Source: Patescibacteria group bacterium (GTDB lineage Bacteria > Patescibacteriota > Patescibacteriia > 2-01-FULL-39-33). From it: a stretch of 32,000 nucleotides of DNA. Both the position numbers and the translations under genes were made by a program. Positions 10,401 through 30,345 of the stretch are shown piece by piece (positions within the stretch are counted from its first letter, which is position 1; every line of letters starts with the position of its first letter). The stretch is from positions 120,001 to 152,000 of the forward strand of contig JBAZMW010000003.1 in NCBI GenBank assembly GCA_041649575.1, written 5' to 3'. The notes under the pieces are model-generated. The model worked only from the letters and a program-made list of their open reading frames with translations. It ran no database searches and was not told where the DNA came from.

Positions 10401-13400
10401 GAACGCAAGAACTCCCCTCACGATTATTGCACTTTAAAACCACTAACCTGCTCTGAGCCGGATTAGTGCAGGTATAAATTCCAGCTTCTTCGGTAAAGTT
10501 ATTATCACCGCAGAAAGACGCAACCCTAACCCCCACATCGAAACGAGCGGAAATAACAGCATTCAAACAGGCTTGAGGGTTTTTGACGCCAGGATGCTCA
10601 AGTGTCCAGCCATCGCTCCAAGGAGTTGGGCTTCCCAAGCGAGAACCGAGAGAGCAACTAAGGCCACGCTGACACTCTTCAACAACATACAGATCGTCAT
10701 AAATAATATTTCCACCGAATAGAAAGGACCAAGCATAAATGCCTTGAGTGGCCGAATAAGAAGGCCATTTGCCGCCGCAAGCCGAACAATCAGCTTTACA
10801 GCTACTGCTACAGGCGGCTTGGCAACCGACTTGATTACATTGTTTGTTGACTCTAAACAAATCGCCGTCGCATTCTTCTGGCCAGTCTATTCGGCCATTA
10901 CCACAAAGATTCTCTACTGGAGGAACAAAATTAGTAGTGCTGAAAGCCCAGCCAAACAGAGCCTGGGTGGCCGAACCCCACCCTTCGCTACGAGAACAAT
11001 TTTTGATTAAACGACAACTGCTGTCACAACTAACGGTGCCAGCGGTAAATCCCAACGACTTACAGGTGGTATTGTTTAAATTAGCACCGTCGCATTCCTC
11101 TCCGGAATCAATAATTCCGTCATGATCGCAGGCAGTTATAACTTCACAGGTGCAACTGGTGGTATTACAAGTCAATCCCGATCGGCAGATAGAGACATTG
11201 GGGTTACAGGTGTCGCCAAGAACCCAACCACAGGGCTGACCAACGGCTCCAGAACTTAAAAGAAACAGATAATGATTGCTGAATTCTGCGCCATTATAGA
11301 CGCTGACGTCGGCCCAACCAATTTTATTGGCTGGGACGGTTTCGGTTATTTTCAGGCTGGCCCAATTGGGCTGGGTGACGCCAGAAGGAGAGGTGGTGAC
11401 ATTGGCAAAAGACCAAGCGTTAGTGTTTTGATTCCATTCTTTAAGATACCAAATTAAATTTTGAGCGACAGCCGTTGCCAGAGGAAAATTAACACCATAA
11501 ATATCGGTATTGTCAGCGGCACCGGTGGCGTTAGGGTTAGCGCCATAACCAGGCTGCATTAAACAGATACTGGGCCGGACTCGACTATTAACGTTAAAAT
11601 CATTAATAAGCGGTCCTAGATAATTATTGGTTACATCGGTATAGCCAAATTCATTTTTGACCCTGATCGGGCCACTAACGGCCTCTGGAGGCACGGCAAT
11701 AATAATCTGATTGTCAACCCAGGTGCTTTCACATTTGTTGTTTAATTCTGAAGGAAATTTACCAAGCTTATCGTCGGCATCATCACAGGGATCGCCGTTA
11801 CCGTCGGTATCAGCACCACAGAAACGAACTTCCCCTTGAGTGGGCATTCTGGCAAAAATAAAATCGTCTAAATACAGATTGGTGCCGTTGGCTCCGGTTT
11901 GGCTATCGGCAATATTAAAGATTAATAAGCGATGAGGGTTGCCATTACGATCCTTTAAACGATCTATTTCTGAAGTATAAGTAAAAATAGCTTCGTATTC
12001 CTGCCAGTTGGTATAATTGCCAGCCACCAGCGCGGTAAGAGTCTGTTGGTTGAACGGTTTGGTCTGTATGGGACTGTTCACGCAACAATTAGAAGTGCTT
12101 TCTGTACATCCGCAACGGCCAGGATTGCTCGCACAGTAAACACCCCCCTGAAGAACGCAATTATTATCGGTGTAAACTCCAGCCATTGCCTTGGGCCAAG
12201 ACTGGGAAGCCCAATCATCGGCGCTATAAGCGATTTTGACACTTGCATTTCTGTCTAAAATGCCTTTGTATTTAAATCTTAAAATATACTTATCGCCCAG
12301 ATTAAAATCTAAACTGGAAATATCATAATAAAAAGAGACGTAATTATTGGTGTAGTGATAAGGCCAGTCGATTAAACTGCCATTATTAAACTTACAGGCG
12401 TGATTGGCGGCCGAGCAACCCATGGGTTGATCAGGAAAATCACATATATTGTTTACACTGTCCCACTCACAGCCACGATTAACACCACCGATGACATTTC
12501 TTTTATAAGGATAGGATAAATAAACTCCTACGCCGTTACACAGATCCTCACTACATCTCACCTGATTGACCTGCCAGTTGTTGGGCGGTTCATTGGCAGA
12601 ACGCCAAATTTTAACACTTTTAGAACCGGAAAAATATTCTTCATCCGAGATGCCAACGGTTGAACGAGATTTGGTCAATTTATACCAGTCGGGCGGCAAT
12701 CCTCCAAGAGAACCTGCCTCAAAATCAACGTAGGTTAGGGTATTTACTAAGAGTGAACCGATCTGGGAAAAATTTTTTCCCAAGATAGAAATAAAATTAT
12801 TAGGAGCGCCATTGGGGAGATCATCAGACCAGGTAGCGGGATCGTATCTACTGCTATCACCTTGGGGGTCATCGGCGGGAGAAAGATAGTTGATAATCGG
12901 AGGTTCGACACACTTACAGCTCCCGTCCCAGCAATCATAATGACAAATATCATCGTCGGGCTGACAAGCGGCCAGATTTCTATCGGCATCGCAATCAACT
13001 CCGGCACAAGCACCGCAATAATTGGTTCCCAGGATTTTTGGATCACCCCCGCAATCAATTCCCTCTTCACCTTGGCCGGCATCGCGAGTCCCATTACAAC
13101 AATGACCGGGCCTAACGGTAAAAGACTTGGTATTTTCAGCACTGTTGCTGTCATGATCATAGGCCTTGGCTTTTATTTGCACCCGCTCGCCAACATCGAC
13201 ACCACTGGCGTTCCAATTGACTTGAGCGACTATTGGCGCGCTGCTGTTGGTATCGACCGGATCAGTGCCTATGGCCTGACTGTTGGCAAAAAAATCTACA
13301 TAAGCCACGCCAGCATCGTCGCTAGCTATGGCTCTAATATTATTAGTCCCCGCCCAATAGCTGTCAGGCTTGCAAATGGAACCGGGCTGAACTCTAACCG

Positions 13401-14385
13401 TCGGAGCGGCGGCATCGATTAAAGTCCCGGTGGAGAAGCTGCCGACGCATTGGCTGGGACTTAAGGAACAATCCAGGAGATAGCCACCGCAATTAATGGC
13501 TGTTCCGCTAATAGCAAGATTATAGGTGGCAGCGGCAGAAAAACATTTTAAATTGCCAAAAGGCCCGGGACAGCTGGTACTAGGGGTAAAAGCGGCCACC
13601 GATCCAGTAACGACCAGGCTTCCGCCAACAGTATCGCCATTACAAGTATGATTGTTGGTATCACATGATTCCGAAAGACACTCATTATTATTAGTACAGG
13701 CTTGGCCATTGGTTAGGGTGGCTCCAGCCCGAGTAACCTTCAGATTCGAAATATCAATAGTGTTTTGATCCAAAGGATGATTAAAGAAAAACCTCACTAC
13801 CACATTTCTTAAAGCAATGTCATCCTTGGGTGTGATTTTGGTAGCCACACAGGCGCTGAGAAGGCCGCATTGGGGCGTAGTAGTGTCGCAGACGCTCCAA
13901 TAGCCACTCGCCTGACAGACTTTAGTACCGCAATTATTGGGTCCACAGGCAGCAGTCTCTCCGGGGGTGGTGCAAATCTCTAAATTACCCGAACCGGTGC
14001 CAGTAGCATTTTTCAAAAGATTGATGACAAAAGAGGCGATGGAGAAAGCCGAGAGAACAATAATCAATCCTATAACTGCTGAAATAATAATTTTTTTGGC
14101 CTTTTCGATTTTGCTTTCTTCACCCGAGGCCGTCATCCAGAGGAAGCCGGCATACAAAATTAAAATCAGAAGTACTATGCCAATAATGCCCAAAAAGATT
14201 CGAATAAAATTGACAATGACATCGATTAAATTGGAGTGAGCCAAGCCGCTACCACCAATAGTATCCAAACCAAAGTTGGTCTCTGCTTGGGCCAAAGCCA
14301 AATTAACAAAAGTAAAGACACCGGCGATCACCAACAAGAGAATAATCGCTGTAAAAAATAATTTTTTTTGACTTCCAAAAGTCAT
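4492..14385 (-). CDS. Giant (3297 aa) cysteine-rich surface protein. Contains a signal peptide, a two-helix pilin-like anchor module, Ig-like/IPT-like modules, tandem CGNG..E.GE.CDDGN repeats and a LamG-like lectin domain
   Basis: A single uninterrupted 9.9-kb ORF. The N-terminus is LLLVIAGVFTFVNLALAQAE, then IFLGIIGIVLLILILYAGFLWMTASGEESKIEKAKKIIISAVIGLIIVLSAFSIASFVINLL. Recognisable domain motifs are described in the findings. All antisense ORFs within it are short. Confidence 0.9.
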   Translation of the reverse strand: MTFGSQKKLFFTAIILLLVIAGVFTFVNLALAQAETNFGLDTIGGSGLAHSNLIDVIVNFIRIFLGIIGIVLLILILYAGFLWMTASGEESKIEKAKKIIISAVIGLIIVLSAFSIASFVINLLKNATGTGSGNLEICTTPGETAACGPNNCGTKVCQASGYWSVCDTTTPQCGLLSACVATKITPKDDIALRNVVVRFFFNHPLDQNTIDISNLKVTRAGATLTNGQACTNNNECLSESCDTNNHTCNGDTVGGSLVVTGSVAAFTPSTSCPGPFGNLKCFSAAATYNLAISGTAINCGGYLLDCSLSPSQCVGSFSTGTLIDAAAPTVRVQPGSICKPDSYWAGTNNIRAIASDDAGVAYVDFFANSQAIGTDPVDTNSSAPIVAQVNWNASGVDVGERVQIKAKAYDHDSNSAENTKSFTVRPGHCCNGTRDAGQGEEGIDCGGDPKILGTNYCGACAGVDCDADRNLAACQPDDDICHYDCWDGSCKCVEPPIINYLSPADDPQGDSSRYDPATWSDDLPNGAPNNFISILGKNFSQIGSLLVNTLTYVDFEAGSLGGLPPDWYKLTKSRSTVGISDEEYFSGSKSVKIWRSANEPPNNWQVNQVRCSEDLCNGVGVYLSYPYKRNVIGGVNRGCEWDSVNNICDFPDQPMGCSAANHACKFNNGSLIDWPYHYTNNYVSFYYDISSLDFNLGDKYILRFKYKGILDRNASVKIAYSADDWASQSWPKAMAGVYTDNNCVLQGGVYCASNPGRCGCTESTSNCCVNSPIQTKPFNQQTLTALVAGNYTNWQEYEAIFTYTSEIDRLKDRNGNPHRLLIFNIADSQTGANGTNLYLDDFIFARMPTQGEVRFCGADTDGNGDPCDDADDKLGKFPSELNNKCESTWVDNQIIIAVPPEAVSGPIRVKNEFGYTDVTNNYLGPLINDFNVNSRVRPSICLMQPGYGANPNATGAADNTDIYGVNFPLATAVAQNLIWYLKEWNQNTNAWSFANVTTSPSGVTQPNWASLKITETVPANKIGWADVSVYNGAEFSNHYLFLLSSGAVGQPCGWVLGDTCNPNVSICRSGLTCNTTSCTCEVITACDHDGIIDSGEECDGANLNNTTCKSLGFTAGTVSCDSSCRLIKNCSRSEGWGSATQALFGWAFSTTNFVPPVENLCGNGRIDWPEECDGDLFRVNKQCNQVGCQAACSSSCKADCSACGGKWPSYSATQGIYAWSFLFGGNIIYDDLYVVEECQRGLSCSLGSRLGSPTPWSDGWTLEHPGVKNPQACLNAVISARFDVGVRVASFCGDNNFTEEAGIYTCTNPAQSRLVVLKCNNREGSSCVRVTSGALKVKTDNNDRNKDYFVFTPTTNLDPGSWYKVVLLQGISSEAGKVIKDETAASARAEDRFCKVNYGGGNTNNAAYCWNFETRADDDSDKICPEGCVECSPDPSWMYWPAAETNYSANLDSADNACLILNPNSYSWSWSTDTSNRVQLDDRVGAEEKGLALNETMHDNPKFTKVIASLNSAGKNDYCEAHIDFTNPYIVEDDNCSSGNIQSPTPWPNSRDAYINAMLGVRFSKNMFNGSLVAGSFILQKCGSETEFNVSGCDEEVNLSSIDIFSYSPEIDASGLTREEIINRLNLLNEHGLPEGVVITPSSNFDAFTWYRIIILGGENGVRGEAASGLSEGILMTDNSFNEEVRTGWDYIPSGQTAGDGQDDYYWIFKTGNQLGKINSVSVNPHLKFMPLTDDTQIYKAWPQAANCNILNPASYVWNWRSLIKLADDSQETNSTGGTGIAVAGICNKDATSCDGYADPAVNTTKVFAKTEGDTNIKARAKNTRDQDCSWNDSNCGDRWGFGQLFIGFENLRITSRYPSCDNSGVNPNYISEGICTNSVVGLDFSLDVDMNTFLANDDIILFKEGAVGGEQSLTITEPTAGSQRYTKNIRLTRSGGDLLDSTSTYRVVVKGGADGVIAWNGKQLASLNYVTGGRGEDCDKNAYPWNTVSGVCTDNCLLNPASDLCNISGGRFKQCSDTDSNNAVDYCDTTCHNLGNNNTASCGDGLVKAGIEECDDGNTTGDDGCGVDCKLEGANQKYGSLCGNKKIETGEGCDDGNTSSGDGCDSKCLPESGRPAGSRPNAPICGNGKIESGESCDDGNTTGGDGCGPTCLRTGSASGAVCGNGKVETGQPDSYSWRFKTLDKPCEVGRVQVLPQKLIINSVGVLPQAHWANPYSASSACNKEGQLLSPICYNWSWGTWNRPLGTYYSIDKYLPPDAVRNNLTCAAGGHPLAWGANYKALDSITDGLIQYITAKISGGKSCGDTGDCGELEVQCSFCNTGGERDLDNVCSDINNKGVGKDCCCHWRPIATPISPTNICPNEVIDIKFTAADGSNINMDMESLTTTTMSTLSGEWNNLNVRLYESPVPSGLNIFGLGKNNFLARFLLKAGNVLAKLFGQGLPAQANPTDLIPIKASAVNLGGATHLLITPQRLLDKNKDYVVWVNGDGDTGDGSRRGVLSQWGVSMSGDKLFTFHTLNQEYCRVEKVFVYAQPPVEFKGPVTDDTFFCKGDDCGKNTSEDLLDDDVSANWNTNYPAQYQAANLVGNQHFYWAKAADVTGNHILNANYKWEIVGPRLLAVDNSSSPQIADWNQTVEGFQSVFVTAYGNNTVNGSTAVRVTASGVVSGAGSAATSVFERVFICDNPWPQIGDFPFRDFIGSASIPAATPITNFETYYCRDRGEAALVDDLPSLNRVAISGREDIIKEFLLTNKDNPLQVKDRVGFNNLAILGSVELVTGEQGRAAKFLGRTADYLTAIDASGNPTNPFNAITGELTVSALVNLSEASLGAGRVIAGNYYWNSNPRLERGWLLGKAIGQEDSLDFIVFDASGNTSLVKYDNFFRDYGNKWVKITAAFKPGKYLKIFINGIQVAKEENNIISGVAYQAGVPFRIGHRADTADQGMWQGYIDEVKIYNKAEPQTDDDGLISYYSFEDASDAIGLRVIKNPNHYSPLVWYQQTFDPKKQGQPKSLTVDGYQAVSEGRTTYVAGADLDNNANNIYTSIYLVSYSQDASGDTKEIYKQLVNNFQLNAGVTADINGGLQDRFGSCSKDNSKKCLVDNQCSKGGFGYCSSDKAKLTRDAKRISDIQEFNLLLDNYYNQKRCANDHQKLCYNSFSCYGGASCGNYYPPLLSGTYVVNRTYSVWPSWQATLANALGKALPADPLNKLEGCAGDYDPATCWDKINKKMQCPTDAYVYSYYVLKDPIDGLIGKKKNIFANGEYNKDGTKWLPAWSSVELINKNTDNANIFGGLNTADFCH
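7874..8260 (-). repeat. Tandem cysteine-rich repeats inside the giant gene (3 full units plus 1 partial)
   Basis: The protein reads CGDGLVKAGIEECDDGNTTGDDGCGVDCKLE / CGNKKIETGEGCDDGNTSSGDGCDSKCLPE / CGNGKIESGESCDDGNTTGGDGCGPTCLRT / CGNGKVETG. Units 1 and 3 share an identical DNA run of about 25 nt (tgcgatgatggcaatacaaccggtg). Confidence 0.85.
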
Positions 14386-14420: not shown

Positions 14421-17400
14421 TTAACGCATAACTCCCAAACAACATTCATTGCCGCTGGCCAGTCCCTTGGTGATTATCCATAAACCGGGCTTGTCGTCCG
14501 GATGAGCCGTATCCTTTTCACAAGCATTAGAATTACTATTGCCTTCCGAACCTCCGACCTCTGAACAAGTCTTCCAATTGGAATCGTTTGTCGGACGACA
14601 TTGACCAAAACAGCAACCGGTACGACCGCTGGCATCGGCCGTGGATTTATCCTTGGAGATTACCCAGCTGCCGGAGAGATAACTAAGAGGAGTGTTGGGA
14701 TTATAATAAGAAACAAAACAAATTTTATTGCTATTATAATCACAGACGCTAGCGCCATTAATACTACTGCAATTTAAACGACCATAAGAGGCCGGGTTGG
14801 GCAATTTGACTTGAGCATTGACCAAATCGGCGTCTCTGACGCAACCAACCGTATTATTACTGCCAACGGATTCATAGCCACAAGCATTGGTTGATCCGGT
14901 GACCCCGGCTTCAGCAGCATTTTTGGGGCCACCAGCCGGCAAAAAGCAGTTTTGGGTAACCGACTGAACACCCGAACCAGACAAAGGGCCATACTCAACG
15001 TTTGGATCAAAGGGATTATGGCTAATCAAAGCCTCGGTGTACTCGGCCCAACCATCATTATTATTGTCTCGATCGGCCTGGCTAAGCCAATAACCCACCG
15101 CTATCTGATTTTGTGTCAGGGTCTCAAGAGCAATATAGCGCTGGGCCTTGTCTTTGTCAGTAGAACCATAATTCCAACCCGGTTTGATGGTATAACTGCG
15201 CATCAAGCGATCAAAAGTCAAGTGAATCAATTCGTTACGGTCAGAAACTGACATTTGAGAAACCGGACTAATGGTTTTTAATAGTGGCGCTTTAATGTCA
15301 ATTTCGCTTGATAACTTAAAAGACCAAGTAAAATCATCGCCAAAACCAGAAACGGCAAAAATCGGAGTTGAAGAACTATAACTAATGACTCGATTACCAA
15401 GACTGTAACAATTGCTAATGCCAATTCCTCCACTACAAATTATGCCTTCATTTAGATTGTAAGCAGTTCGACCCGATTGACCATTGCCATTTTGTGATTT
15501 GCCCTGAGCCAGCCCAACCCGCTGGCCATCATTATCCAAATAATAGTCAAAGCTACCATTAAAAGCGTTTTTGGACATATCCACCAAACCCGAGGCAGAG
15601 GTTCTGGCGAGCGGATAGAAAACGGTTTTAGAGCCAATGGTTTTTTGACAACGACCATGGCCATCACTAGCGCCTCCCCACTGAACGCATTTGGCGTCGG
15701 CACTATCTATTAGATCAGAGGAGATTAAATTAATGGAATATGAGGTTGAAGTGGCAATCTCTCCGGCAGCCAAGCTGGCTATGGGCCAACAAGTCATCTC
15801 ATCGCCGCAGCTATTAGTCGCTCCACAAGAAGCGCTTGGCTTTAGACCAACGGTGTGATACTGATTGGAAAATTCCAAAACAAACTGGTCGTTATTAAGA
15901 TTTTGCCAAGTGTTATCGCTTTGTCTGAGACCAACTTTTATACTATCGTGCGTTATCGATAGAGGGTTGATGGCCTCGTTGAAGGTAACCTGAAAAATAG
16001 TATTTCTAAAAGGGTCGGCTAACCCCTTAACCGCTCTTTGGCTAGAGGCGTCCTGCGCCGGAGTAATATTGGAAAAAACTACTGACGCTGGTGTATTTTT
16101 GCCAGTAAATCTTAAATTATATCTATTGGCTATAGAACCGGTGGTCTTGGTTTGCAAATCGCTACCAGCTCCAGCTTCAAAAATATTAGAAGCTATCAGC
16201 TTGTTTTTTATCGCCTGCCTATCGGTAGTGGCATTATTAGTGACTGCGATATCTTTACCAAGAATATAAGTATTGATCGCATTATTATTTTCCAAAATTT
16301 CAATTTTGTCGCCGGCCTGAGAAGCTGTGACATTAAAAGTCCAGTTAGTAACGCCGCTGGGCGAAGCAGCCAGAATAAACGTCAAACCATAGGGACCGAT
16401 ATTAACCGTGCGACTAGAGGCGGAATATGGGCCATTATTAACATCGTTCATACCGCCAGGCCAATTGACATCAACTTTATTATTATTAGCGTCAATAGAG
16501 ACAACGACAGCGCCGCTAGCTGAACCACCATAGCTGCCAGTAAGACTGGCGGCTGGAGCATTAGGATTGGTGCTTGATGGTTGTGTGTAACCTTGATCAA
16601 CCTGGGGGGTGATAGTATTAAGAACCGTTAAGTTGAACTTGCTAACCGTGGGGGCGGAGGGAGAACTATAAACATCACCCTCGCCGTCGGGATAAGGATA
16701 AACACCAGTAATATCGACTATCTCCGGCGGATCTAAGTCTAATTCTCCATTGGTAGTAAAATCCCAAAGATATTGTTTATTGATCAGGGAATTGAAAACC
16801 GAACGATCCGGTTCTTGAACCGATCTGACGCCTTCCTGCAAAGTCACCTGAAAGCGGCGATTAATTTTATCTTCCGCGCCCAGATAGGTCTCTGGCGTAA
16901 AAACAAAAGTCTTGTTGTCACTACTGGCAACCATCGTATTGTCGTAGCTGTCGAAACCAAAAGGATCGGTACTGGGAACGCAATTATTCTGATTGTCGAG
17001 TAAACAAATTTTAACATTTTTTATTCTTTCGTTGTCGCACCTACCATCACTATTAGAGTCATCACAAATGGTATCGGATTTAATTGGTACTTTAAAAGTA
17101 ACCGCTATAATTGTGTTGATTGGCACCTCTGTCTGGCCCGGGGTCGGATAAACGCTTTCGATTGGTCCGCGCCCAATACCCCAGCGACCGGGATCAATCG
17201 TCGGGCCACCGGGAGTGGTTCCCGGACCGCCGCCAAAGGTGGCGCCGGTTAGTATTCTTAAAACAAAAGTTACAATACTGAAAGCCGAAAGAATAATAAT
17301 AAAGCCAATAATCGCTTGGGTCATTATCTTTTTGGCCTTTTCGATTTTGCTTTCTTCGCCCGCGGCCGTCATCCATAAGAAACCGGCGTAAAGAATCAGT

Positions 17401-17654
17401 AGCAACAAAATAATTCCTAAAACGCCTAAAATCGCCTGGATAATTCTGGCTATCACTACCCTCAAATCGGTCTGGGGCAAAGCCGAATTAAGGTTGCTTA
17501 GGCCAAAATTAGTATCGACGGGATTGGCCGGAGAAGCTGCTGCTAACTGCGGCACAGCTACTAGTAACAAAAAAACTACCAAAAAAATTGCCAAAAACAG
17601 CTTTCTGGTAGTTAGCGACGACCTTTGCATGGAAAAAAGTCGCGACTTAATCAT
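14421..17654 (-). CDS. Large (1077 aa) surface protein with the same N-terminal two-helix pilin-like module, Ig-like modules and a Cys-rich C-terminus
   Basis: 1077-aa ORF. The N-terminus is FLAIFLVVFLLLVAVPQLAAAS, then ILGVLGIILLLLILYAGFLWMTAAGEESKIEKAKKIMTQAIIGFIIILSAFSIVTFVLRIL. An SbsA/Big_5-like segment reads IESVYPTPGQTEVPINTIIAVTFKVPI. The start could be the Met 8 codons downstream. Confidence 0.88.
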   Translation of the reverse strand: MIKSRLFSMQRSSLTTRKLFLAIFLVVFLLLVAVPQLAAASPANPVDTNFGLSNLNSALPQTDLRVVIARIIQAILGVLGIILLLLILYAGFLWMTAAGEESKIEKAKKIMTQAIIGFIIILSAFSIVTFVLRILTGATFGGGPGTTPGGPTIDPGRWGIGRGPIESVYPTPGQTEVPINTIIAVTFKVPIKSDTICDDSNSDGRCDNERIKNVKICLLDNQNNCVPSTDPFGFDSYDNTMVASSDNKTFVFTPETYLGAEDKINRRFQVTLQEGVRSVQEPDRSVFNSLINKQYLWDFTTNGELDLDPPEIVDITGVYPYPDGEGDVYSSPSAPTVSKFNLTVLNTITPQVDQGYTQPSSTNPNAPAASLTGSYGGSASGAVVVSIDANNNKVDVNWPGGMNDVNNGPYSASSRTVNIGPYGLTFILAASPSGVTNWTFNVTASQAGDKIEILENNNAINTYILGKDIAVTNNATTDRQAIKNKLIASNIFEAGAGSDLQTKTTGSIANRYNLRFTGKNTPASVVFSNITPAQDASSQRAVKGLADPFRNTIFQVTFNEAINPLSITHDSIKVGLRQSDNTWQNLNNDQFVLEFSNQYHTVGLKPSASCGATNSCGDEMTCWPIASLAAGEIATSTSYSINLISSDLIDSADAKCVQWGGASDGHGRCQKTIGSKTVFYPLARTSASGLVDMSKNAFNGSFDYYLDNDGQRVGLAQGKSQNGNGQSGRTAYNLNEGIICSGGIGISNCYSLGNRVISYSSSTPIFAVSGFGDDFTWSFKLSSEIDIKAPLLKTISPVSQMSVSDRNELIHLTFDRLMRSYTIKPGWNYGSTDKDKAQRYIALETLTQNQIAVGYWLSQADRDNNNDGWAEYTEALISHNPFDPNVEYGPLSGSGVQSVTQNCFLPAGGPKNAAEAGVTGSTNACGYESVGSNNTVGCVRDADLVNAQVKLPNPASYGRLNCSSINGASVCDYNSNKICFVSYYNPNTPLSYLSGSWVISKDKSTADASGRTGCCFGQCRPTNDSNWKTCSEVGGSEGNSNSNACEKDTAHPDDKPGLWIITKGLASGNECCLGVMR

Positions 17655-23800: not shown

Positions 23801-23896
23801 AAAAATTTTACCTGTGTTCCCATCTTAACACAAAAAAATCATAACTGACAAGACAAAAAATTGCTAATTGCTGCTTTTTCCGTTATTATTTTATAT

Positions 23897-25261
23897 ATGA
23901 AAGAAAAACTGCCTCAAGTCGCCATTGTCGGCCGCGCCAACGTCGGCAAATCCACTCTCTTTAACCGCCTAATCGAAAGAAACAAGGCGCTGGTTTCGTC
24001 TATAGGCGGCACTACCCGCGATAGAAATATCGACACGGTAAAATGGCGCGACCGGATTTTTACTTTAATCGACACTGGCGGTTTGGATATTGACAGGGGC
24101 ATCGAAGAGAAAATCGCCCAAGGCATCATCAGACAAGCAGAAAAAGGCATTGCTCAAGCCGATCTTATTCTTTTTTTGGTTGACGCCAGAAGCGGACTCT
24201 TGCCAACCGACAAAGAATTAGCGCAACAACTAATCAAAAACAAACTAAAAAATAAAATTCTACTAGTAGTCAATAAGGCCGATTCTTTGAAATGGCGTCA
24301 AAACACTTCCGAATTTTATAAATTGGGCTTGGGCGAGCCTCTTATGGTCTCGGCTTCCAACGGCTCTGGCAGCGGAGATTTATTGGATGTGATTTTGGAA
24401 AGATTGCCAGCTAAGAGCGCCCGGCCTTTAGCCACGGCCGAGAAGCTGCCAAGCATAAAAATTGCTATCGTCGGCAAGCCTAATGTCGGCAAATCGTCGA
24501 TTATGAATTCCATACTGGGCGAAGAGCGGGTAATTATTACCGACATTCCTCATACCACCAGAGAGGCTCACGACACCGAATTTATCTATCAAAATCACAA
24601 GTTTATTATCATTGACACGGCCGGCATCAGGAAACAAGGAAAAATCCAACCCCGAAGCCTGGAGAGAAAATCAGTGGACAAATCGCTGGCCGCCATTAAA
24701 GAAGCGGAAGTGGTGATTTTGGTAACCGAGGTGCAAAAAAAAATCGATACTCAAGACAAAAAAATATCGCAAGAAATTTTGGAGGCCAAAAAATCGCTGC
24801 TTATCGCCGCTAACAAGTGGGATTTGATTCCCGCCAAAGACGAAAAGACCATTAATAAATACATCAAATATTATCAGGCGGCTTTCCCCTACCTGTGGTG
24901 GGCGCCGCTGATTTTCGTTTCGGCCAAAGACAACCTGAGAACCAAAAAAATATTGGAGTTGATTTTGGAAATAAAAGCGTCGCGGGAAAAAGAAATCTCC
25001 GACAGCCAGCTAGAAAGATTCTTGAAATCGAAAATCAAGCAACATCGGCCCAGCCGCGGCCAGGGATTAAAAAACCCCTACATCTTCAAAATAGAACAAG
25101 CGGGAATCAATCCGCCGCGCTTTATTGTTTCTGTCAACGACCCAAAGATTTTGCATTTTTCCTATATCAGATTTCTGCAAAACAGCTTGCGGGAACAATT
25201 TAAACTAATTGGCACGCCTATACAAGTAGAAGTAAAAAAGTGGCAAAGAAAAAATTTATGA
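23897..25261 (+). CDS. der: Ribosome-associated GTPase Der/EngA (tandem GTPase domains plus KH-like domain)
   Basis: Two G-domains are present: GRANVGKST / DTGG / NKAD and GKPNVGKSS / DTAG / NKWD. The start is moved to the ATG at 23897 (MKEKLPQVAIVG); the track start at 23861 is a TTG adding 12 hydrophobic codons. Confidence 0.92.
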   Translation: MKEKLPQVAIVGRANVGKSTLFNRLIERNKALVSSIGGTTRDRNIDTVKWRDRIFTLIDTGGLDIDRGIEEKIAQGIIRQAEKGIAQADLILFLVDARSGLLPTDKELAQQLIKNKLKNKILLVVNKADSLKWRQNTSEFYKLGLGEPLMVSASNGSGSGDLLDVILERLPAKSARPLATAEKLPSIKIAIVGKPNVGKSSIMNSILGEERVIITDIPHTTREAHDTEFIYQNHKFIIIDTAGIRKQGKIQPRSLERKSVDKSLAAIKEAEVVILVTEVQKKIDTQDKKISQEILEAKKSLLIAANKWDLIPAKDEKTINKYIKYYQAAFPYLWWAPLIFVSAKDNLRTKKILELILEIKASREKEISDSQLERFLKSKIKQHRPSRGQGLKNPYIFKIEQAGINPPRFIVSVNDPKILHFSYIRFLQNSLREQFKLIGTPIQVEVKKWQRKNL

Positions 25262-25824
25262 AATTAATCATCGGGCTGGGCAATCCCGGCAAAAAATACC
25301 AAAAGACTTGGCATAATCTGGGTTTTCTAATACTGGGGGAGTGGCAAAAAATTTTGGCCTTTCCCGCTTTCAAAAAACAACTTAAATTTCAAGCGGAAAC
25401 CAGCGAAGGAAAACTGGGCGAAGAAAAGATAATCCTGGCCAAACCATTGACCTACATGAATAATTCGGGAGAAGCCGTAGCTAAAATAAAAAACTACTAC
25501 CAGCTAGACCTGGATCAGATAATTGCCATTCATGATGATATCGACTTACCGCTAGGCAAGATCCGATTGGCCAAAAATTCATCGGCCGGCGGCCATAACG
25601 GAGTCAAATCGCTGATAGAAACTTTGGGCTCGCAAAATTTCTGGCGCCTAAAAATCGGCGTCAAGACGCCACGACTGGAAAAGATTAAGGCGGAAGATTA
25701 TGTTTTGGAAAAATTTAATAAACAACAAGAACTAGAAATCGCCAAAATAAAAAAAACAGCCGTAGCCGCGCTGGAAACCGGCCTGGACAAAAACTGGGAG
25801 ACGGCCATGAATCTTTACAATTAG
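25258..25824 (+). CDS. pth: Peptidyl-tRNA hydrolase
   Basis: MKLIIGLGNPGKKYQKTWHNLGF...LTYMNNSGEAV...IHDDIDLPLGKIRL...GGHNGVKS. The ATG at 25258 overlaps the der stop as ATGA (25258..25261), suggesting translational coupling. Confidence 0.92.
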   Translation: MKLIIGLGNPGKKYQKTWHNLGFLILGEWQKILAFPAFKKQLKFQAETSEGKLGEEKIILAKPLTYMNNSGEAVAKIKNYYQLDLDQIIAIHDDIDLPLGKIRLAKNSSAGGHNGVKSLIETLGSQNFWRLKIGVKTPRLEKIKAEDYVLEKFNKQQELEIAKIKKTAVAALETGLDKNWETAMNLYN

Positions 25825-25893
25825 AAAAGGCCTCGTTTCACCTGGGCTTGGCCTCGGGCGGTTGCCTAAGGCTAATTAAAGTGAAATGAGACC
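25825..25893 (-). terminator. Candidate intrinsic terminator closing the minus-strand tRNA/ncRNA unit
   Basis: The minus strand has a 13-bp stem, GGUCUCAUUUCAC (25893..25881) paired with GUGAAACGAGGCC (25841..25829), with one mismatch and one wobble. UUUU follows at 25828..25825. The 39-nt interior can form further pairs. There is no U-run on the plus-strand side. Confidence 0.4.
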
Positions 25894-25987
25894 TCGCGAA
25901 AGTGCTTGGAGATGGAGGCAGGTATTCCGATTGCCCGTCTCGCCGAAGACGAAGCCGAGGCGGAAGCTACCCCCTCACTGAAAACCT
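25894..25987 (-). ncRNA. Structured GC-rich trailer between the last tRNA and the terminator; unknown class
   Basis: Nested complementarity on the minus strand, for example GGUA[GC]UUCCG (25969..25959) with CGGAAUACC (25931..25923). There is no credible ORF. The strand is inferred only from context. Confidence 0.3.
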
Positions 25988-26063
25988 TGGTGGACGCCGA
26001 CGGGATCGAACCGCCATCTCTCCTGGTGCTAGCAGGCCGCTCTACCAATTAAGCTACACGTCC
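25988..26063 (-). tRNA. tRNA with encoded CCA; the hand-folded anticodon loop CUAGCAC gives anticodon AGC (Ala box), but the stem lacks G3:U70
   Basis: The 76-nt cloverleaf is GGACGUG UA GCUU AAUUGGUA GAGC G GCCUG CUAGCAC CAGGA GAGAU GGCGG UUCGAUC CCGUC GGCGUCC A CCA. The 7:66 pair is a G-G mismatch. Confidence 0.8.
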
Positions 26064-26074
26064 ACCAAATAGCT

Positions 26075-26152
26075 TGGCTCCCCGGGGAAGGATTTGAACC
26101 TCCGACCTAGTAGTTAACAGCTACCCGCTCTACCGGGCTGAGCTACCGGGGA
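26075..26152 (-). tRNA. tRNA-Asn (anticodon GUU), copy A, CCA encoded
   Basis: UCCCCGG UA GCUC AGCCCGGUA GAGC G GGUAG CUGUUAA CUACU AGGUC GGAGG UUCAAAU CCUUC (C) CCGGGGA G CCA. U1-A72 and G73 match classical bacterial tRNA-Asn. My fold leaves one extra C between the T stem and the acceptor stem, so ends are +/-1. Confidence 0.8.
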
Positions 26153-26199
26153 ACATGAGAACACGAGTACTAATTCAACTAGCTACCTAGAGAATAGTT

Positions 26200-26274
26200 T
26201 GGTTTCCCGGGGAGGGTTCGAACCTCCGACCTGGTGGTTAACAGCCACCCGCTCTACCACTGAGCTACCAGGAA
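26200..26274 (-). tRNA. tRNA-Asn (anticodon GUU), copy B, CCA encoded
   Basis: The 75-nt cloverleaf is UUCCUGG UA GCUC AGUGGUA GAGC G GGUGG CUGUUAA CCACC AGGUC GGAGG UUCGAAC CCUCC CCGGGAA A CCA. Confidence 0.88.
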
Positions 26275-26279
26275 ACACG

Positions 26280-26935
26280 AGAACGAGTGTAGAAGGAGGA
26301 TGCTCGCCGAAGCGAGAGTCAGCCACCAGCTGGGGTCGACTATTGGTGGGTGTTCCATCCTCCAACCAGTAACGGATCCCGGCAGTTTTCCCGGAAATCC
26401 TGCCCCAAACAAAGATGCGGCAAGGGAGGAGCGTCGTGGGGTTGCCCGTGGGTGGCTTCACGGGGACCGCCAGGAGCACACCTCCCTTGCCCGACCCGAC
26501 CGATGATGTCCTCAGCGAGAGTGAGATCCTGCTACCCGACAGGGGGAGGGCGGCAGAAACAATCATCCGATCGGTGGAACTGGCCAGGGCAAACAGTATT
26601 TCCGTTCGTGGAGAGCGCGCTGGGTGCTCTACTGATACGGAGAATGTTGCCCTGTTAATGGCTTTAAAGGAGGACGGAGCTGGGCTTGGGCGGCCCAGTA
26701 AGGCTACTACCGACATTGGGTGAAACCAGCTGGTCATTGGCGCCGGTAAACCTCTCCGTCCACAAGAACACTGATAACGGCCACAATTCTGTCCACTAGT
26801 ATATGGCTCCATCCATAAGGATAGAAACATAATTTGCGATGAACAACTGTTAGGAGGGAAACAGCTATCCACCAACTAGCAGACAGAATTATGGCCGTTA
26901 ATGATTATCAAAGAACTTTACAGGATTCAGACAAT
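26280..26935 (-). ncRNA. Large GC-rich, helix-dense non-coding RNA candidate of unknown family, upstream of and co-oriented with the tRNA cluster
   Basis: There is a sharp composition shift: 41/60 G+C in 26461..26520 versus 10/60 in 26941..27000. Overlapping ORFs are open on both strands, which is typical of structured RNA in an AT-rich genome. There are many perfect helices: 26295-26302/26356-26363, 26303-26307/26312-26316, 26323-26328/26344-26349, 26420-26429/26481-26490, 26445-26450/26459-26464, 26585-26592/26647-26654, 26672-26679/26754-26761 and 26775-26793/26882-26900. The strand call is tentative. Confidence 0.5.
26775..26900. repeat. 19-bp inverted repeat forming a long-stem hairpin within the ncRNA candidate
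   Basis: taacggccacaattctgtc (26775..26793) pairs with gacagaattatggccgtta (26882..26900), with one non-Watson-Crick position. The stem is extended by CTAG/CTAG after a 2x2 internal loop. Confidence 0.8.
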
Positions 26936-26940
26936 ATTTT

Positions 26941-26968
26941 ATTTTATCATCTTAAATAAAAAAGTCAA
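26941..26968 (-). promoter_or_regulatory. Candidate strong sigma70-type promoter driving the ncRNA-tRNA unit
   Basis: The minus strand reads TTGACT (26968..26963), a 16-nt spacer, then TGaTAAAAT (extended -10; hexamer at 26946..26941). The predicted start is near 26934, just upstream of the GC-rich segment. Confidence 0.45.
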
Positions 26969-27017
26969 GGGTATAAAATAAATGATTATTTTTTTAGCTA
27001 AATTTAAATAAAAAATT

Positions 27018-28130
27018 GTGAGTGATAATAAACACGAAAAAGATCGAGAGTTAAAATACTGGCTGGCGCTAGCTCAAATCAAAAAAATCGGTCCGGTAAG
27101 CTTTAAAAAAATAATCGATTATTTTGCCTTAGGAGAAAACGCCTGGCGAGCCAATCTGGCAGACTTGTTGACGGCTGGTTTGGATAAAAAGCTGGCTGAA
27201 GAAGTTGTTGTTGAAAGGAGCCAAATCAATCCCGATGCCGTCTGGGAAAAAGTCAGCCAAAGCGGAGTCGGTTTTATTTTTATCCAAGACAAAAATTATC
27301 CGCAACTCTTAAAAGAAATATACAATCCGCCGGCACTGTTGTTTTTCCGCGGCTCGCCGGAAGCCATAAATAATTTTTGCTTGGCGGTGGTAGGCACGCG
27401 GAAATATTCGCCTTACGGCCAACAAGCTACCGAAGAAATCGCCGGCCAACTGGCCAGAGAACACCTGACAATAGTTTCCGGTTTGGCTTTGGGCATCGAC
27501 GCCCTGGCCCATGAGGCGGCGCTAAAGAATAACGGCCTGACCGTGGCGGTTCTGGGAGCGGCGGTGGAAGAAAAAAGTATCTACCCGGCAGAAAACAGAC
27601 GACTAGCCGAAAGAATTGTCGCTAGTGGCGGCGCTCTGATCTCCGAGTACCCGCCCGGCACCCAACCGGCTAAATTCACTTTTCCTATGCGCAACCGGAT
27701 AATCTCCGGCTTGTCCAGAGGTGTGGTGGTGGTGGAAGCGCCGGAAAACTCCGGGGCGCTGATTACCGCCAAATACGCCTTGGAACAAAACCGTGAAGTT
27801 TTTGCCATACCGGGCAGTATTTATAGTAATAATTCTCAAGGCACCAATAATCTGATAAAGCTCGGCGCTAAAATGGTCACCCGGGCCGACGATGTTTTAG
27901 AAGAACTAAACTTGCAACAAGTGGCCAGATTTATGGAGAACAAAAAAATCTTGCCAGCCAATTCGGAGGAAGAATTGATTTTGAAAGCCTTGTCCAAAGA
28001 GCCGACCCATGTTGACAAAATCGCCAAAATCAGTAAACTAAAAATTAATGTGCTCTCGGGGCTGCTGACACTAATGGAAATGAAAGGATCGATCAAAGAC
28101 CTGGGAGGAAAAAATTATATTTTAAGATAA
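27018..28130 (+). CDS. dprA: DNA processing protein DprA/Smf
   Basis: GTG start. Motifs are LAVVGTRKYSPYG, IVSGLALGIDALAHEAAL, GTVAVLG..., FPMRNRIISGLSRGVVVVEA and NSGALITAKYALEQNREVFAIPGSI. It lies upstream of topA, a common synteny. Confidence 0.92.
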   Translation: MSDNKHEKDRELKYWLALAQIKKIGPVSFKKIIDYFALGENAWRANLADLLTAGLDKKLAEEVVVERSQINPDAVWEKVSQSGVGFIFIQDKNYPQLLKEIYNPPALLFFRGSPEAINNFCLAVVGTRKYSPYGQQATEEIAGQLAREHLTIVSGLALGIDALAHEAALKNNGLTVAVLGAAVEEKSIYPAENRRLAERIVASGGALISEYPPGTQPAKFTFPMRNRIISGLSRGVVVVEAPENSGALITAKYALEQNREVFAIPGSIYSNNSQGTNNLIKLGAKMVTRADDVLEELNLQQVARFMENKKILPANSEEELILKALSKEPTHVDKIAKISKLKINVLSGLLTLMEMKGSIKDLGGKNYILR

Positions 28131-28143
28131 TCCCATCACCATA

Positions 28144-30345
28144 ATGAAAAGCCTGGTAATCGTCGAATCGCCGACTAAAGCCAAAACCATTTCCAAATTT
28201 TTGACCAAAGACTTCCAAATAGAATCGTCTTTTGGCCATGTTCGTGATTTGCCGGAAAAAGAATTGGGGGTGGAAGTAAAAAATAATTTTGAACCTAAAT
28301 ACGTGATTTCCCCGCGCGCCAAAAAAAGAGTGACCGAATTAAAAAATTTGGCGGAAAAAGCCGATTTGATTTATTTTGCTACTGACGAAGATCGCGAAGG
28401 CGAGGCCATTTCTTGGCATTTGGCGCAGATCTTTAAAACACCGACCGATCAGGTAAAACGCATCACCTTTCACGAAATTACCGAGGAAGCAGTCAAAGAA
28501 AGCCTGAAACATCCCCGAACCATCGACCTTAATCTGGTCGACGCTCAACAAGCCCGACGCGTCCTTGACCGCTTGGTAGGTTATGAGCTTTCGCCTTTCT
28601 TATGGAAAAAAGTGGCCAAAGGGCTATCGGCCGGCCGCGTTCAGTCGGTAGCCGTCCGTCTGGTGGTAGAAAGAGAAAGAGAAATTAAAAACTTTAAAAT
28701 TCAGGAATACTGGGAAATTTTTGGAGAATTTAAAACCCTTAAAGCGCCGGACAAACTAAAGGCTAAATTGCAAAAAATTGACGGCCGGGTGCTGGAAAAG
28801 ATGGCCATAACATCGGAAAAACAAGCCGCTGATTTGACCGCCGCCTTAAAGCCGCTCCAATACTACGTGGCCGATAATCAAAAAAAACAAACCAAAAAAA
28901 ATCCCCTGCCACCCTTTACCACCTCCACTTTGCAACAAGAGGCCAATCGTCGACTGGGCTACAGCGCCAAACAAACCATGATGCTGGCCCAACAGCTTTA
29001 CGAGGGAGTGGAAATAACTGGCGAAGCCACCGGACTAATAACCTACATGCGCACCGACTCACTTAACCTGTCGGAAAAATTTCTGCAGGAAGCGGCGCAA
29101 TATCTTGATAAAAATTTAGGAAAAAATTACTTAGAAACCAAAACTTTCAAAACCAAAAGCAAAGGCGCTCAGGAAGCGCACGAGGCAATCCGGCCGACTT
29201 CCGCTTCTAGGTCGCCGGAAGAGATAAAAGCTTCTTTGGATCCAAAACAATTCAAGCTCTACCAGCTTATCTGGCAGAGAGCGCTGGCCAGCCAGATGCC
29301 GCCGGCGATTCTGGAGGCCACGGTCATCGACATCAACAGCCAGAATAATAAATATACTTTCAGGGCGACCGGCCAAACTATAAAATTTGATGGTTTTCTA
29401 AAAATTTATCCCTCGCCGACCAAAGACGAGCTGCTGCCAACCGTCTCTTTAAAGGAAGAGATGTCTTGCTTAAAAATAGAACCGGAACAAAAGTTCACCC
29501 AACCGCCCGCCCGCTATAACGATGCTACGCTGGTTAAAGCGCTGGAAGAAAAAGGCATCGGCCGACCTTCTACCTATGCTCCAACCATCGCCACTATTAT
29601 CGAAAGGGGCTACGTTGAAAGAAACCAAGACAAAAGATTACAACCTAAAGAAATCGCTTTTTTGGTTAATGATATTTTGGTAGAACACTTCAAAGACATC
29701 GTCGACTATGATTTCACGGCCAAAATGGAAACGGATCTGGACGAAATCGCTGAAGGCCAAAAAGAGTGGCAGCCGGTCATTAAAGAATTTTACGAACCCT
29801 TTAAGGAAAATCTGGTTTTAAAAAATCAAGAATTAACCAAAAAAGAATTAACCGAGGAAAGCAGCGACGAGATCTGCGAAAAATGCGGTTCGCCGATGGT
29901 GATAAAATTGGGGCGTTATGGAAAATTTCTGGCCTGCTCCAATTACCCGAAATGCAAAAATACCAAAAAATTAAAGAGTGATGACAAGGCAGCCAAGTCC
30001 GAGCCACAAATCCTGGAAGAAACTTGCCTGGATTGCGGCGCTAAACTAGTCTTGCGCCAAGGACGCTATGGCAGCTTCAAAGGCTGCTCACAATATCCAA
30101 AATGCAAATACATCAAAAAGGAGCAAGCCGAGGATTTAAATCTAACTTGCCCGGCTTGTCATGAAGGGAAAATCGTCGCCAAACGCAGCCGTAAGGGAGT
30201 TTTTTATGCCTGCGACCGCTATCCTGATTGCCAGACCGCCTTCTGGGGCAAACCTAAGGACGAGAAGTGCTCCAGCTGCGGTTGGCCGCTAGTGGACAGT
30301 AAGAATGGAGTTAAGTGTTCCAACAAAGAATGCCAGAACTCTTAA
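28144..30345 (+). CDS. topA: DNA topoisomerase I (type IA) with four C-terminal zinc ribbons
   Basis: Toprim motif LVIVESPTKAKTI and DEDREGE, and the active-site Tyr region ITYMRTDS. The C-terminal ribbons are CEKCGSPM...CSNYPKC, CLDCGAKL...CSQYPKC, CPACHEGK...CDRYPDC and CSSCGWPL...CSNKEC. Confidence 0.95.
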   Translation: MKSLVIVESPTKAKTISKFLTKDFQIESSFGHVRDLPEKELGVEVKNNFEPKYVISPRAKKRVTELKNLAEKADLIYFATDEDREGEAISWHLAQIFKTPTDQVKRITFHEITEEAVKESLKHPRTIDLNLVDAQQARRVLDRLVGYELSPFLWKKVAKGLSAGRVQSVAVRLVVEREREIKNFKIQEYWEIFGEFKTLKAPDKLKAKLQKIDGRVLEKMAITSEKQAADLTAALKPLQYYVADNQKKQTKKNPLPPFTTSTLQQEANRRLGYSAKQTMMLAQQLYEGVEITGEATGLITYMRTDSLNLSEKFLQEAAQYLDKNLGKNYLETKTFKTKSKGAQEAHEAIRPTSASRSPEEIKASLDPKQFKLYQLIWQRALASQMPPAILEATVIDINSQNNKYTFRATGQTIKFDGFLKIYPSPTKDELLPTVSLKEEMSCLKIEPEQKFTQPPARYNDATLVKALEEKGIGRPSTYAPTIATIIERGYVERNQDKRLQPKEIAFLVNDILVEHFKDIVDYDFTAKMETDLDEIAEGQKEWQPVIKEFYEPFKENLVLKNQELTKKELTEESSDEICEKCGSPMVIKLGRYGKFLACSNYPKCKNTKKLKSDDKAAKSEPQILEETCLDCGAKLVLRQGRYGSFKGCSQYPKCKYIKKEQAEDLNLTCPACHEGKIVAKRSRKGVFYACDRYPDCQTAFWGKPKDEKCSSCGWPLVDSKNGVKCSNKECQNS

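Follow-up and report, generated by a model that had tools for sequence, protein, structure and literature searches.

The large structured RNAs GOLLD (RF01998) and ROOL (RF03087) are non-coding, GC-rich relative to their genomes, dense in helices and adjoin tRNA genes. The same traits are found at positions 26280..26935 of a 32,000-nucleotide (nt) stretch of DNA from a Patescibacteria group bacterium (GenBank assembly GCA_041649575.1, contig JBAZMW010000003.1, positions 120,001 to 152,000; hereafter the window), a segment that the original prediction, made from the letters of the DNA alone, had compared with GOLLD and ROOL and read as a candidate for one large non-coding RNA. Unlike those RNAs, however, the segment gives no match to their covariance models at E<=10, is not conserved as a unit, and consists of separate 70-125-nt domains rather than one multi-domain architecture. 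A second point of comparison is provided by the tRNA-spacer-derived small RNAs (sRNAs) of E. coli and by the eukaryotic MALAT1-mascRNA, which are released from tRNA-linked precursors by RNase P. As in those systems, structured RNA here lies directly before tRNAs or tRNA-like structures, which could set its 3' end via RNase P. In contrast to them, the small RNA at the head of the segment ends at its own terminator in distant members of the Candidate Phyla Radiation (CPR), and its linkage to tRNAs is therefore secondary and a matter of one clade.

We think it probable that the segment forms the 5' two-thirds of a non-coding, polycistronic precursor of small RNA, tRNA-like RNAs and tRNAs, encoded on the minus strand between pth and dprA. 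From 5' to 3' the parts are a conserved promoter, a 125-nt small RNA, five GC-rich domains, three tRNAs, one further GC-rich domain and a terminator hairpin. A single large RNA is not what the comparison with relatives bears out, since only the 5' 125 nt are conserved among them, the following 490 nt have no homolog as a whole in the collections searched, and the fold is modular. What the comparison shows is that the 490 GC-rich bases are this genome's version of a variable cargo carried between the small RNA and the terminator.

A conserved three-way-junction small RNA precedes the GC-rich block

The 5' end of the segment and the sequence just upstream of it contain two features:

26941..26968, minus strand: sigma-70-type promoter, TTGACT-16-(TG)TAAAAT, matching 10 of 12 consensus positions and carrying an extended -10 TG
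26775..26900, minus strand: three-way-junction small RNA made up of P1 (26 nt per strand), P2 with a CCCUCCU loop, the junction AAAUUAUG and P3; identified by covariation, by the covariance model R3 and by folding

Conservation was assessed in 80 dprA loci from species-representative genomes, to which a metagenome scan with the hairpin motif and look-ups of DprA relatives were added (loci are referred to by number, as L001 and so on). In the 80 dprA loci, matches were found only to the tRNAs and to 26769..26984, which comprises the hairpin and its promoter, and they always lay just upstream of dprA. When 18 distinct sequences were aligned with MAFFT and folded with RNAalifold, a three-way junction of 49 pairs emerged, with compensatory changes in 35 of them. 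The consensus pairs are formed in 93.5% of alignment cells, as against 34-51% with slid partners, and none of 500 shuffles reached the observed values. In related genomes, conservation and covariation are absent for the GC-rich part taken as a single unit, whereas the 5' hairpin covaries strongly.

A search with R3, the covariance model built from the small RNA, revealed 16 further copies, which come from more distant CPR and have E between 9e-12 and 7e-5. Homologs are now known from 33 CPR loci, among them bins that carry the labels Buchananbacteria, Falkowbacteria, Doudnabacteria and Saccharibacteria. All R3 copies lie on the strand opposite dprA and nearly all within ~1 kb upstream of it, the exceptions being L007 and L014 (~2-3 kb upstream). 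The order pth, small RNA, dprA is syntenic in all loci, and in most distant copies a convergent ORF (open reading frame) of the size of pth comes next. The promoter boxes TTGAC and TATGATAAnAT are kept at equal distance in L001, L002, L003, L005 and L011, and the distant homologs have equivalent boxes upstream. In those distant lineages the small RNA stands alone, with a TTGACA/TATAAT promoter upstream, an intrinsic terminator directly after it and no tRNAs; the Rfam near-matches at these loci were only to terminator-bearing sRNA models. The small RNA is a genuine, widespread and structured family that is absent from Rfam 15, and full-text searches of the literature on CPR structured RNAs, 6S RNA and dprA motifs gave no description of it. 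Its distribution shows it to be an old CPR gene that is stand-alone in distant lineages. Some public records of metagenome-assembled genomes with the CPR gene order der-pth-sRNA-dprA-topA (L002-L004, L008, L011-L013) are titled 'uncultured Gammaproteobacteria' and are probably mislabelled.

The one invariant sequence feature of the family is CCCUCCU in the apical loop of P2, present in 34 of 34 copies. This motif has the sequence of the 16S anti-Shine-Dalgarno. With low to moderate confidence we suggest that the RNA may use it to pair with AGGAGG ribosome-binding sites, or else to mimic the 16S 3' end or bind a protein recognising that end. Regulatory sRNAs with C-rich loops are known from Firmicutes, namely RsaE/RoxS and the UCCC-motif Rsa RNAs. 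Like RsaE/RoxS, the CPR small RNA presents a conserved, unpaired C-rich loop on a stable hairpin, complementary to the Shine-Dalgarno sequence; unlike them, it has a loop that is the anti-Shine-Dalgarno sequence itself, and it shares no sequence or structural homology with them. For such a loop, mimicry of the 16S 3' end would be just as open as Shine-Dalgarno targeting. An apparent enrichment of further CCUCC motifs across the operons was discarded, as ~15 were observed outside the loop against 9 expected and the motif is no more skewed than GGAGG.

With the 6S, SRP and 5S RNAs the family shares a size of ~130 nt, wide conservation, and a promoter and terminator of its own. It nevertheless has neither the central bubble on the 5' strand of 6S RNA nor the GNRA-capped helix-8 motif of SRP RNA, and its closing stem, with 23 predicted pairs and, in the window, arms of 26 nt, far exceeds helix I of 5S RNA in length. 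Neither the window nor 22 related loci gave an Rfam match to 6S, SRP or 5S.

The GC-rich part folds into five local domains

Downstream of the small RNA, a partition function calculated for the window transcript divides the 490 nt into five separately closed domains (26761..26672, 26654..26585, 26574..26496, 26491..26419 and 26363..26295). Together with the small RNA this makes six separate local domains, with closing-helix probabilities of 0.8-1.0. With their flanking bases, the five are:

26665..26762, minus strand: domain 1, a predicted Y-shaped tRNA-like module closed by GGACGGAG/CUCCGUCC and with a long arm; its hairpin CUGGGC-CGCCCAA-GCCCAG stacks on the 3' strand, and UCCU, not NCCA, comes next (model R1; helix probabilities 0.82-0.99)
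26581..26654, minus strand: domain 2, a rod-like hairpin closed by CAGGGCAA/UUGCCCUG; GCCA (26584..26581) and then GUUCC come after it (helix probabilities 0.84-0.98)
26496..26574, minus strand: domain 3, Y-shaped and closed by CCGAUCGgAUGAU/AUCAUCGGUCGG, with a single long arm and, beside the 3' strand, a small hairpin (helix probabilities 0.86-0.99)
26419..26491, minus strand: domain 4, a GC-rich rod closed by a perfect stem of 11 bp, GGCAAGGGAGG/CCUCCCUUGCC, and containing an inner hairpin, CCCGUG..CACGGG; its inverted repeat, I7, is 100% complementary (helix probabilities 0.99-1.00)
26288..26364, minus strand: domain 5, Y-module-like, closed by GGAGGAUG/CAUCCUCC and with a single arm; its hairpin CUCGC-UUCG-GCGAG stacks on the 3' strand, and UUCU and then the leader of a tRNA-Asn come next (helix probabilities 0.79-0.98)

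The whole 666 nt fold better than dinucleotide shuffles, the z-score being -7.2 for the minus strand and -4.9 for the plus strand. The bulk of this signal comes from the hairpin at 26900..26776, which alone has z = -12.3. For the GC-rich 496 nt alone the values are -3.8 (minus) and -2.6 (plus), while ten coding windows of the same size range from -1.7 to +0.8.

The helices that the original prediction had described as nested in an orderly way are real, yet they do not nest into one 650-nt fold but belong to the six local domains. For pairs predicted over long range the probabilities are no higher than 0.56-0.70, and such pairs conflict with the cloverleaves of the tRNAs; the minimum-free-energy pairing of the GC-rich block with the trailer was rejected on both counts. 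These results bear on whether 26280..26935, or its 490-nt part, could still be one large structured RNA that represents a new class and is co-transcribed with the tRNAs. Its helix density and GC content in an AT-rich setting, its place next to tRNAs and the lack of any Rfam match, which would make it new, all agree with such an RNA. We nonetheless hold it to be improbable, given that the weak long-range pairs compete with tRNA folding, that there is no conservation past one species (identical copies in two samples), that the two ends of the segment are different, separately conserved families, and that in distant CPR the small RNA stops at its own terminator.

The original prediction had left the strand unsettled. 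For the conserved parts the minus strand is now settled, and for the remainder it is probable, because the promoter is conserved, the tRNAs are co-oriented, both covariance models match best on the minus strand, and G-U pairs exceed A/C mismatches in the minus-sense folds. The counts behind this last point are 17:3 for the GC-rich part and 10:0 for the small RNA; R3 scores 122.8 bits on the minus strand of the window against 45.2 bits on the plus strand, and the matches to R1, described below, are on the minus strand only. The GC-rich segment and the tRNAs are arranged for co-transcription and are presumably transcribed together.

Covariance modelling places domain 1 in a recurrent family of Y-shaped modules

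Several relatives carry a module of common design in the same operon. A stem of 7-9 bp joins the 5' and 3' ends and encloses a long arm, running from GAUUUCUG to CAGUGAAAUC, then two bases and the hairpin CUUGGG-loop-CCCAAG on the 3' strand; the module ends in NCCA and a run of U. It is found in L002, L095, L097 and L094, with a four-way version in L098. A module directly after the small RNA, matching the position of domain 1, is also found in L098, L005, L101 and L093.

A covariance model, R1, was built with only L094, L095 and L097 in its seed, the window being excluded. It recovered L002, used as a control, at E = 1.8e-9, and its next match was the window at 26762..26665 (-), full-length, with 23.9 bits and E = 0.0095 in 294 kb (E-values that are rough, the calibration having been shortened). 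The matches that followed, L005 5746..5646 and a second copy in L094, lie in the same operon and on the same strand. When the seven are aligned by fitting them to the model, 92.8% of the cells are paired as against 34-53% with slid partners, although such an alignment leans to the structure by construction. A hidden Markov model (HMM) of the Y-module that used sequence only did not reach the window, and a structure-aware model was needed. In terms of the model, domain 1 is thus shown to belong to the recurrent family of Y-shaped tRNA-like modules.

The acceptor-like stem with a stacked hairpin is seen in domains 1, 3 and 5. A second model, R2, adds the sequences found by R1, domain 1 of the window included. 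When run with filters off over 25800..27020, it gave domain 5 (26364..26288) as its second-best match, with 14.8 bits and E = 0.005 for a 2.4-kb search. The resemblance of domain 3 to the Y-module was seen by eye. Domains 3 and 5 appear to share the outline of the module, a weaker case than that of domain 1.

In their likeness to tRNA (RF00005) and to the tRNA-like domain of transfer-messenger RNA (tmRNA), the Y-modules combine a 7-9-bp stem that joins the ends with a T-arm-like hairpin on the 3' strand and, in relatives, an NCCA tail and a U-rich trailer, all within a tRNA operon. There is also a likeness by eye between the 5' end, GGGGgcG-GAUUUCUGG, and the start of tmRNA, GGGGCUG-AUUCUGG. 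The Y-modules differ from tRNA in having no anticodon arm, no canonical T loop and no G3:U70, and in a stacked length of 15 bp rather than 12 bp. Neither the Rfam tRNA and tmRNA models nor ARAGORN detect them, and the module of L095 has no Rfam tRNA match even at E<=10. An encoded NCCA follows the structures in the relatives L002, L097, L098, L005, L093 and L003 and, as GCCA, domain 2 of the window; it does not follow domains 1 (UCCU) or 5 (UUCU).

The cargo differs from genome to genome

In the clade of the window, the sequence after the small RNA is different in every genome examined. tRNAs follow directly in L002, L086, L091, L011 and L100; structured tails of 70-290 nt that are not tRNAs are found in L001, L005, L087, L093, L098 and L101; and L003, L094, L095, L097 and L099 combine tRNAs with structured tails. 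Neither nhmmer nor blastn found anything alignable to 26280..26775 in ~100 syntenic CPR loci, and the 490-nt part as a whole has no homolog in phage and plasmid records, in viral contigs or among the called ORFs of libraries of 5.8 and 1.84 billion proteins. Aligning the variable tails with MAFFT yielded nothing informative.

Some pieces within the 490 nt recall one another or a relative. Domains 3 and 5 share a 24-nt stretch (repeat D10; 75% identical) over the small hairpin and the 3' strand, which is suggestive of a duplication as far as the sequence goes. Domain 2 resembles by eye, with no statistical support, a structure in L003: a lead-in, UUAACAGGGC, is followed by a stem, NCCA and a U-rich tail, and the L003 counterpart reads UUAUCAGGGCGCUCC...GGAGCGCCCUG-ACCA-GUUUUU. 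Domain 4 is an orphan rod.

Could the 490 nt then be a functionless, fast-evolving spacer, composed of decayed or duplicated tRNA and tRNA-like genes and GC-rich hairpins, tolerated in a highly expressed RNA operon, stably folded and trimmed harmlessly? The spacer would fit a slot that differs in every relative, the failure to find a homolog of the 490-nt part as a whole in any search, the degenerate tRNAs with 40-70-nt insertions in L091, L099, L095 and L097, the short internal paralogous pieces (D7, D10, D19 and D20) that suggest local duplication, and a folding z of only -3.8. Set against this are the well-conserved sequence of the Y-module in L002, L094, L095 and L097, which points to selection on at least that module, closing helices that are near-perfect, a GC content of 0.59 that equals that of the tRNAs and exceeds most of the window, and the rarity with which a CPR genome of ~1 Mb retains 500 nt of junk. 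On this evidence we regard a mere spacer, which would have the anatomy described here, as unlikely, though not to be dismissed, and continue with a cargo of structured RNAs.

The same absence from relatives bears on an origin of the GC-rich block as foreign DNA, that is, as a small non-autonomous mobile element, or the remnant of one, targeting the tRNA cluster. The block does have a GC content well above the genome average, is missing from the same site in all relatives and adjoins tRNAs. It is present, however, as a single copy in the 32-kb window, is bracketed by neither terminal inverted repeats nor a target duplication, has no integrase or transposase nearby, and shows no similarity to phages, plasmids or viral contigs; searches with phage and plasmid BLAST in distant mode and with two pattern scans of viral contigs returned nothing similar. 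Domain 1, moreover, is native to the operon family. A foreign origin is accordingly very improbable, and the block is better read as cargo of the operon.

Past the cargo, the operon continues with the following features:

26274..26200, minus strand: tRNA-Asn(GUU), CCA encoded (ARAGORN; Rfam tRNA 69.9 bits)
26153..26075, minus strand: tRNA-Asn(GUU), CCA encoded (ARAGORN; Rfam tRNA 56.6 bits)
26063..25988, minus strand: tRNA with anticodon AGC, CCA encoded (ARAGORN; Rfam tRNA 44.1 bits)
25910..25973, minus strand: GC-rich trailer domain past the last tRNA (folding z: minus strand -2.9, plus strand -1.1)
25827..25895, minus strand: long terminator-like hairpin, then UUUU, at the convergent end of pth (helix probabilities 0.96-0.98)

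Relatives' operons likewise close with a hairpin and a U-run right before pth. A U-rich leader, UGUUCUY, precedes both tRNA-Asn genes and domain 1 (26762..26774, 26275..26294 and 26154..26175) and also several tRNAs and modules of relatives (the leaders of L098, L003 and L011), other modules of relatives being preceded by AUUAU. UGUUCUY may be a processing signal.

The trailer contains a 36-nt GC-rich element (25967..25932; RNA GCUUCCGCCUCGGCUUCGUCUUCGGCGAGACGGGCA) that is 89% identical to L091 3968-4003 (E = 5e-7). The L091 genome is distantly related, and its copy lies inside a degenerate tRNA-Leu(UAA)-like gene; possible origins of the element are a small mobile hairpin and a remnant that the two genomes share. 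L091 also holds, at ~750-930 of the RNA-sense extract, two copies of a ~45-nt GC-rich hairpin repeat (GCGAKCCUGCCUGYCCGGUAGGCAGGGGA...) after its tRNAs, another kind of cargo in the same slot.

The tRNAs of these operons have peculiarities of their own. The gene at 25988..26063 (-) is called tRNA-Ala by ARAGORN, with the anticodon AGC (A34), A3:U70 in place of G3:U70 and a G7/G66 mismatch; A34 anticodons are unusual in bacteria, and G3:U70 is the alanine identity pair. In the same operon L002 has a tRNA with the anticodon AGG. Relatives' operons are rich in non-canonical tRNA-like genes (L003 5401-5478, L011 5680-5754, L086 and L091, which ARAGORN calls 'tRNA-???', and gaps of L099 and of L094, the latter at 313-385), the majority of which ARAGORN does not detect. 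They have 6-nt anticodon loops, with 2-nt 'anticodons', and T loops of UAACCAR or CGAAAAC as against UUCRANY. Insertions of 40-70 nt are carried by tRNAs of L099, L091, L095 (2004-2089) and L097.

Known RNA families and coding potential

All 4227 Rfam 15 models were run with cmscan at gathering score, and Rfam was also searched at E<=10 on both strands of 25700..27100 and 26270..26790. At gathering score only the tRNAs matched, which agrees with the original prediction that no known class is represented, and at E<=10 there were only chance-level matches to unrelated families on either strand. None of RNase P, tmRNA, SRP, 6S, GOLLD, ROOL, HEARO, OLE and raiA matched at either threshold. Rfam searches of the 22 related loci returned only tRNAs and terminator look-alikes. 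By default, ARAGORN found no tmRNA, and no tRNA in 26288..26762, with only the three tRNAs qualifying; lowered thresholds and mitochondrial mode gave dozens of false positives, which were discarded. A likeness by eye of the plus strand to motifs of the RNase P S-domain (GGGUGAAA, GGUAAACC) was rejected, since the order of the motifs is wrong, no model matches and the strand is the wrong one.

The lack of coding potential that had been proposed for the segment holds up as well: there is no Pfam match to any of five ORFs of the region, no real protein homolog and no codon-position GC pattern. The ORF that might still be taken for an orphan protein gene is the 230-aa frame on the minus strand (26183..26875), or alternatively a 102-aa ORF on the plus strand. 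A gene caller did call the 230-aa ORF on the source contig, and the frame is free of stops across the GC-rich block, as happens in 2.2% of shuffles. The 230-aa ORF nevertheless traverses a tRNA gene and covarying RNA. A library of 5.8 billion proteins contains only the ORF itself, and an exhaustive HMMER search of 1.84 billion representatives returned just two matches, both of them translated tRNA arrays aligned over the overlap with tRNA-Asn, so that tRNA-derived artefacts are its only homologs. Its GC content by codon position is 0.55/0.61/0.61, unlike the 0.49/0.40/0.45 of the window's genes, and its abundance of Ser, Pro and Arg and scarcity of Lys, Glu, Asn and Asp are unlike the genome's proteins. 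We give a protein gene almost no credence.

Genomic setting

The non-coding gap at 25825..27017 is the largest in a window that is otherwise densely coding. It is flanked on one side by der (23861..25261, +) and pth (25240..25824, +) and on the other by dprA (27018..28130, +) and topA (28144..30345, +). In a 300-nt profile the GC content peaks at 0.61 at 26401..26700, the rest of the window lying at ~0.33-0.56 and mostly at 0.35-0.50, and the GC-rich block has the same G+C (0.59) as the tRNAs. Each feature of the original prediction that was checked is present in the sequence. The compositional jump from 10/60 G+C at 26941..27000 to 41/60 at 26461..26520 is exact. Open frames occur on both strands, and the one of 230 aa crosses tRNA-Asn. 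A consensus scan finds the promoter at 26968..26941 (-), ARAGORN and Rfam agree on three co-oriented minus-strand tRNAs, the C(UUCG)G hairpin is present at 26316..26303 (-) with a pair probability of 0.98, and the hairpin with a U-run at 25895..25827 (-).

The DNA of the window is known from two samples (the 189-kb ENA contig ERZ27247363 k141_920019 and Logan SRR8542065), the sole other contig with the same DprA being 100% identical. The nearest other DprA among 5.8 billion proteins has 64% identity, and no close strain is thus available.

Some details of the neighbouring genes may be added. The listed frames of der and pth overlap by 22 nt (25240..25261); the start of pth is uncertain, as the second source contig calls a pth six codons shorter (188 aa). 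The listed dprA ORF begins with GTG at 27018, and the 20 nt upstream of it are AT-rich and bear no recognisable Shine-Dalgarno sequence; the small RNA that diverges from dprA bears the anti-Shine-Dalgarno-like loop. Elsewhere, two adjacent and very large ORFs, at 4492..14385 (-; 3297 aa) and 14421..17654 (-; 1077 aa), occupy 13 kb of the window.

Discussion

The reading of the segment as the 5' part of a small-RNA, tRNA-like and tRNA precursor has several results against it. The score of R1 on domain 1 is modest (23.9 bits) and comes with rough E-values, domain 1 is without the NCCA of its relatives, and the R2 match to domain 5 is significant only within the 2.4-kb search. Domains 2, 3 and 4 are without any homolog, and their structures are predicted by thermodynamics only; the folding z of the GC-rich part is modest (-3.8), and its plus strand folds too (-2.6). 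The stop-free frame over all 496 nt, found in only 2.2% of shuffles, is mildly unexpected of a non-coding sequence, and the additional CCUCC motifs of the operons are not clearly enriched.

If a polycistronic precursor is nevertheless the correct reading, the ancestral gene would have consisted of a promoter, the small RNA and a terminator between pth and dprA. One CPR clade would then have gained tRNAs and tRNA-like RNAs between the small RNA and the terminator, a cargo that appears to turn over fast and of which the genome of the window would hold an unusually large, GC-rich version. The precursor would probably be cut at the borders of tRNAs and tRNA-like structures, by RNase P at their 5' ends and by 3' trimming, into pieces of ~70-125 nt. 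The small RNA may then act through its unpaired CCCUCCU loop, and the tRNA-like modules may serve as processing handles or as tRNA mimics.

More tentatively, the operons may hold two RNA families that lie outside Rfam 15 and did not turn up in the full-text literature, one a small RNA with an anti-Shine-Dalgarno loop and the other a set of anticodon-less, Y-shaped tRNA mimics with NCCA ends, with the 490-nt block a lineage-specific expansion yielding several stable tRNA-mimic RNAs. We put this fuller picture forward as a possibility that is open to considerable doubt. If it is true, the small RNA could regulate ribosome-binding sites globally, or it could serve as a decoy for a factor recognising the 3' end of 16S rRNA, and the Y-shaped mimics would share operons with tRNAs bearing 6-nt anticodon loops and non-canonical T loops. 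For genome scans the locus carries a caution, in that a GC-rich, helix-dense block near tRNAs can be a chain of small RNAs.

The CPR, or Patescibacteria, make up a large share of bacterial diversity and have tiny genomes, and to our knowledge almost no non-coding RNAs have been described in them beyond the universal ones. The tRNA-like modules, together with the odd tRNAs of these operons (6-nt anticodon loops, UAACCAR T loops, A34, and AGC without the alanine pair), suggest uses other than decoding. Because it occupies one chromosomal position across many CPR lineages, covaries strongly and has an invariant loop, the small RNA is a concrete candidate for a lineage-wide, translation-related regulator.

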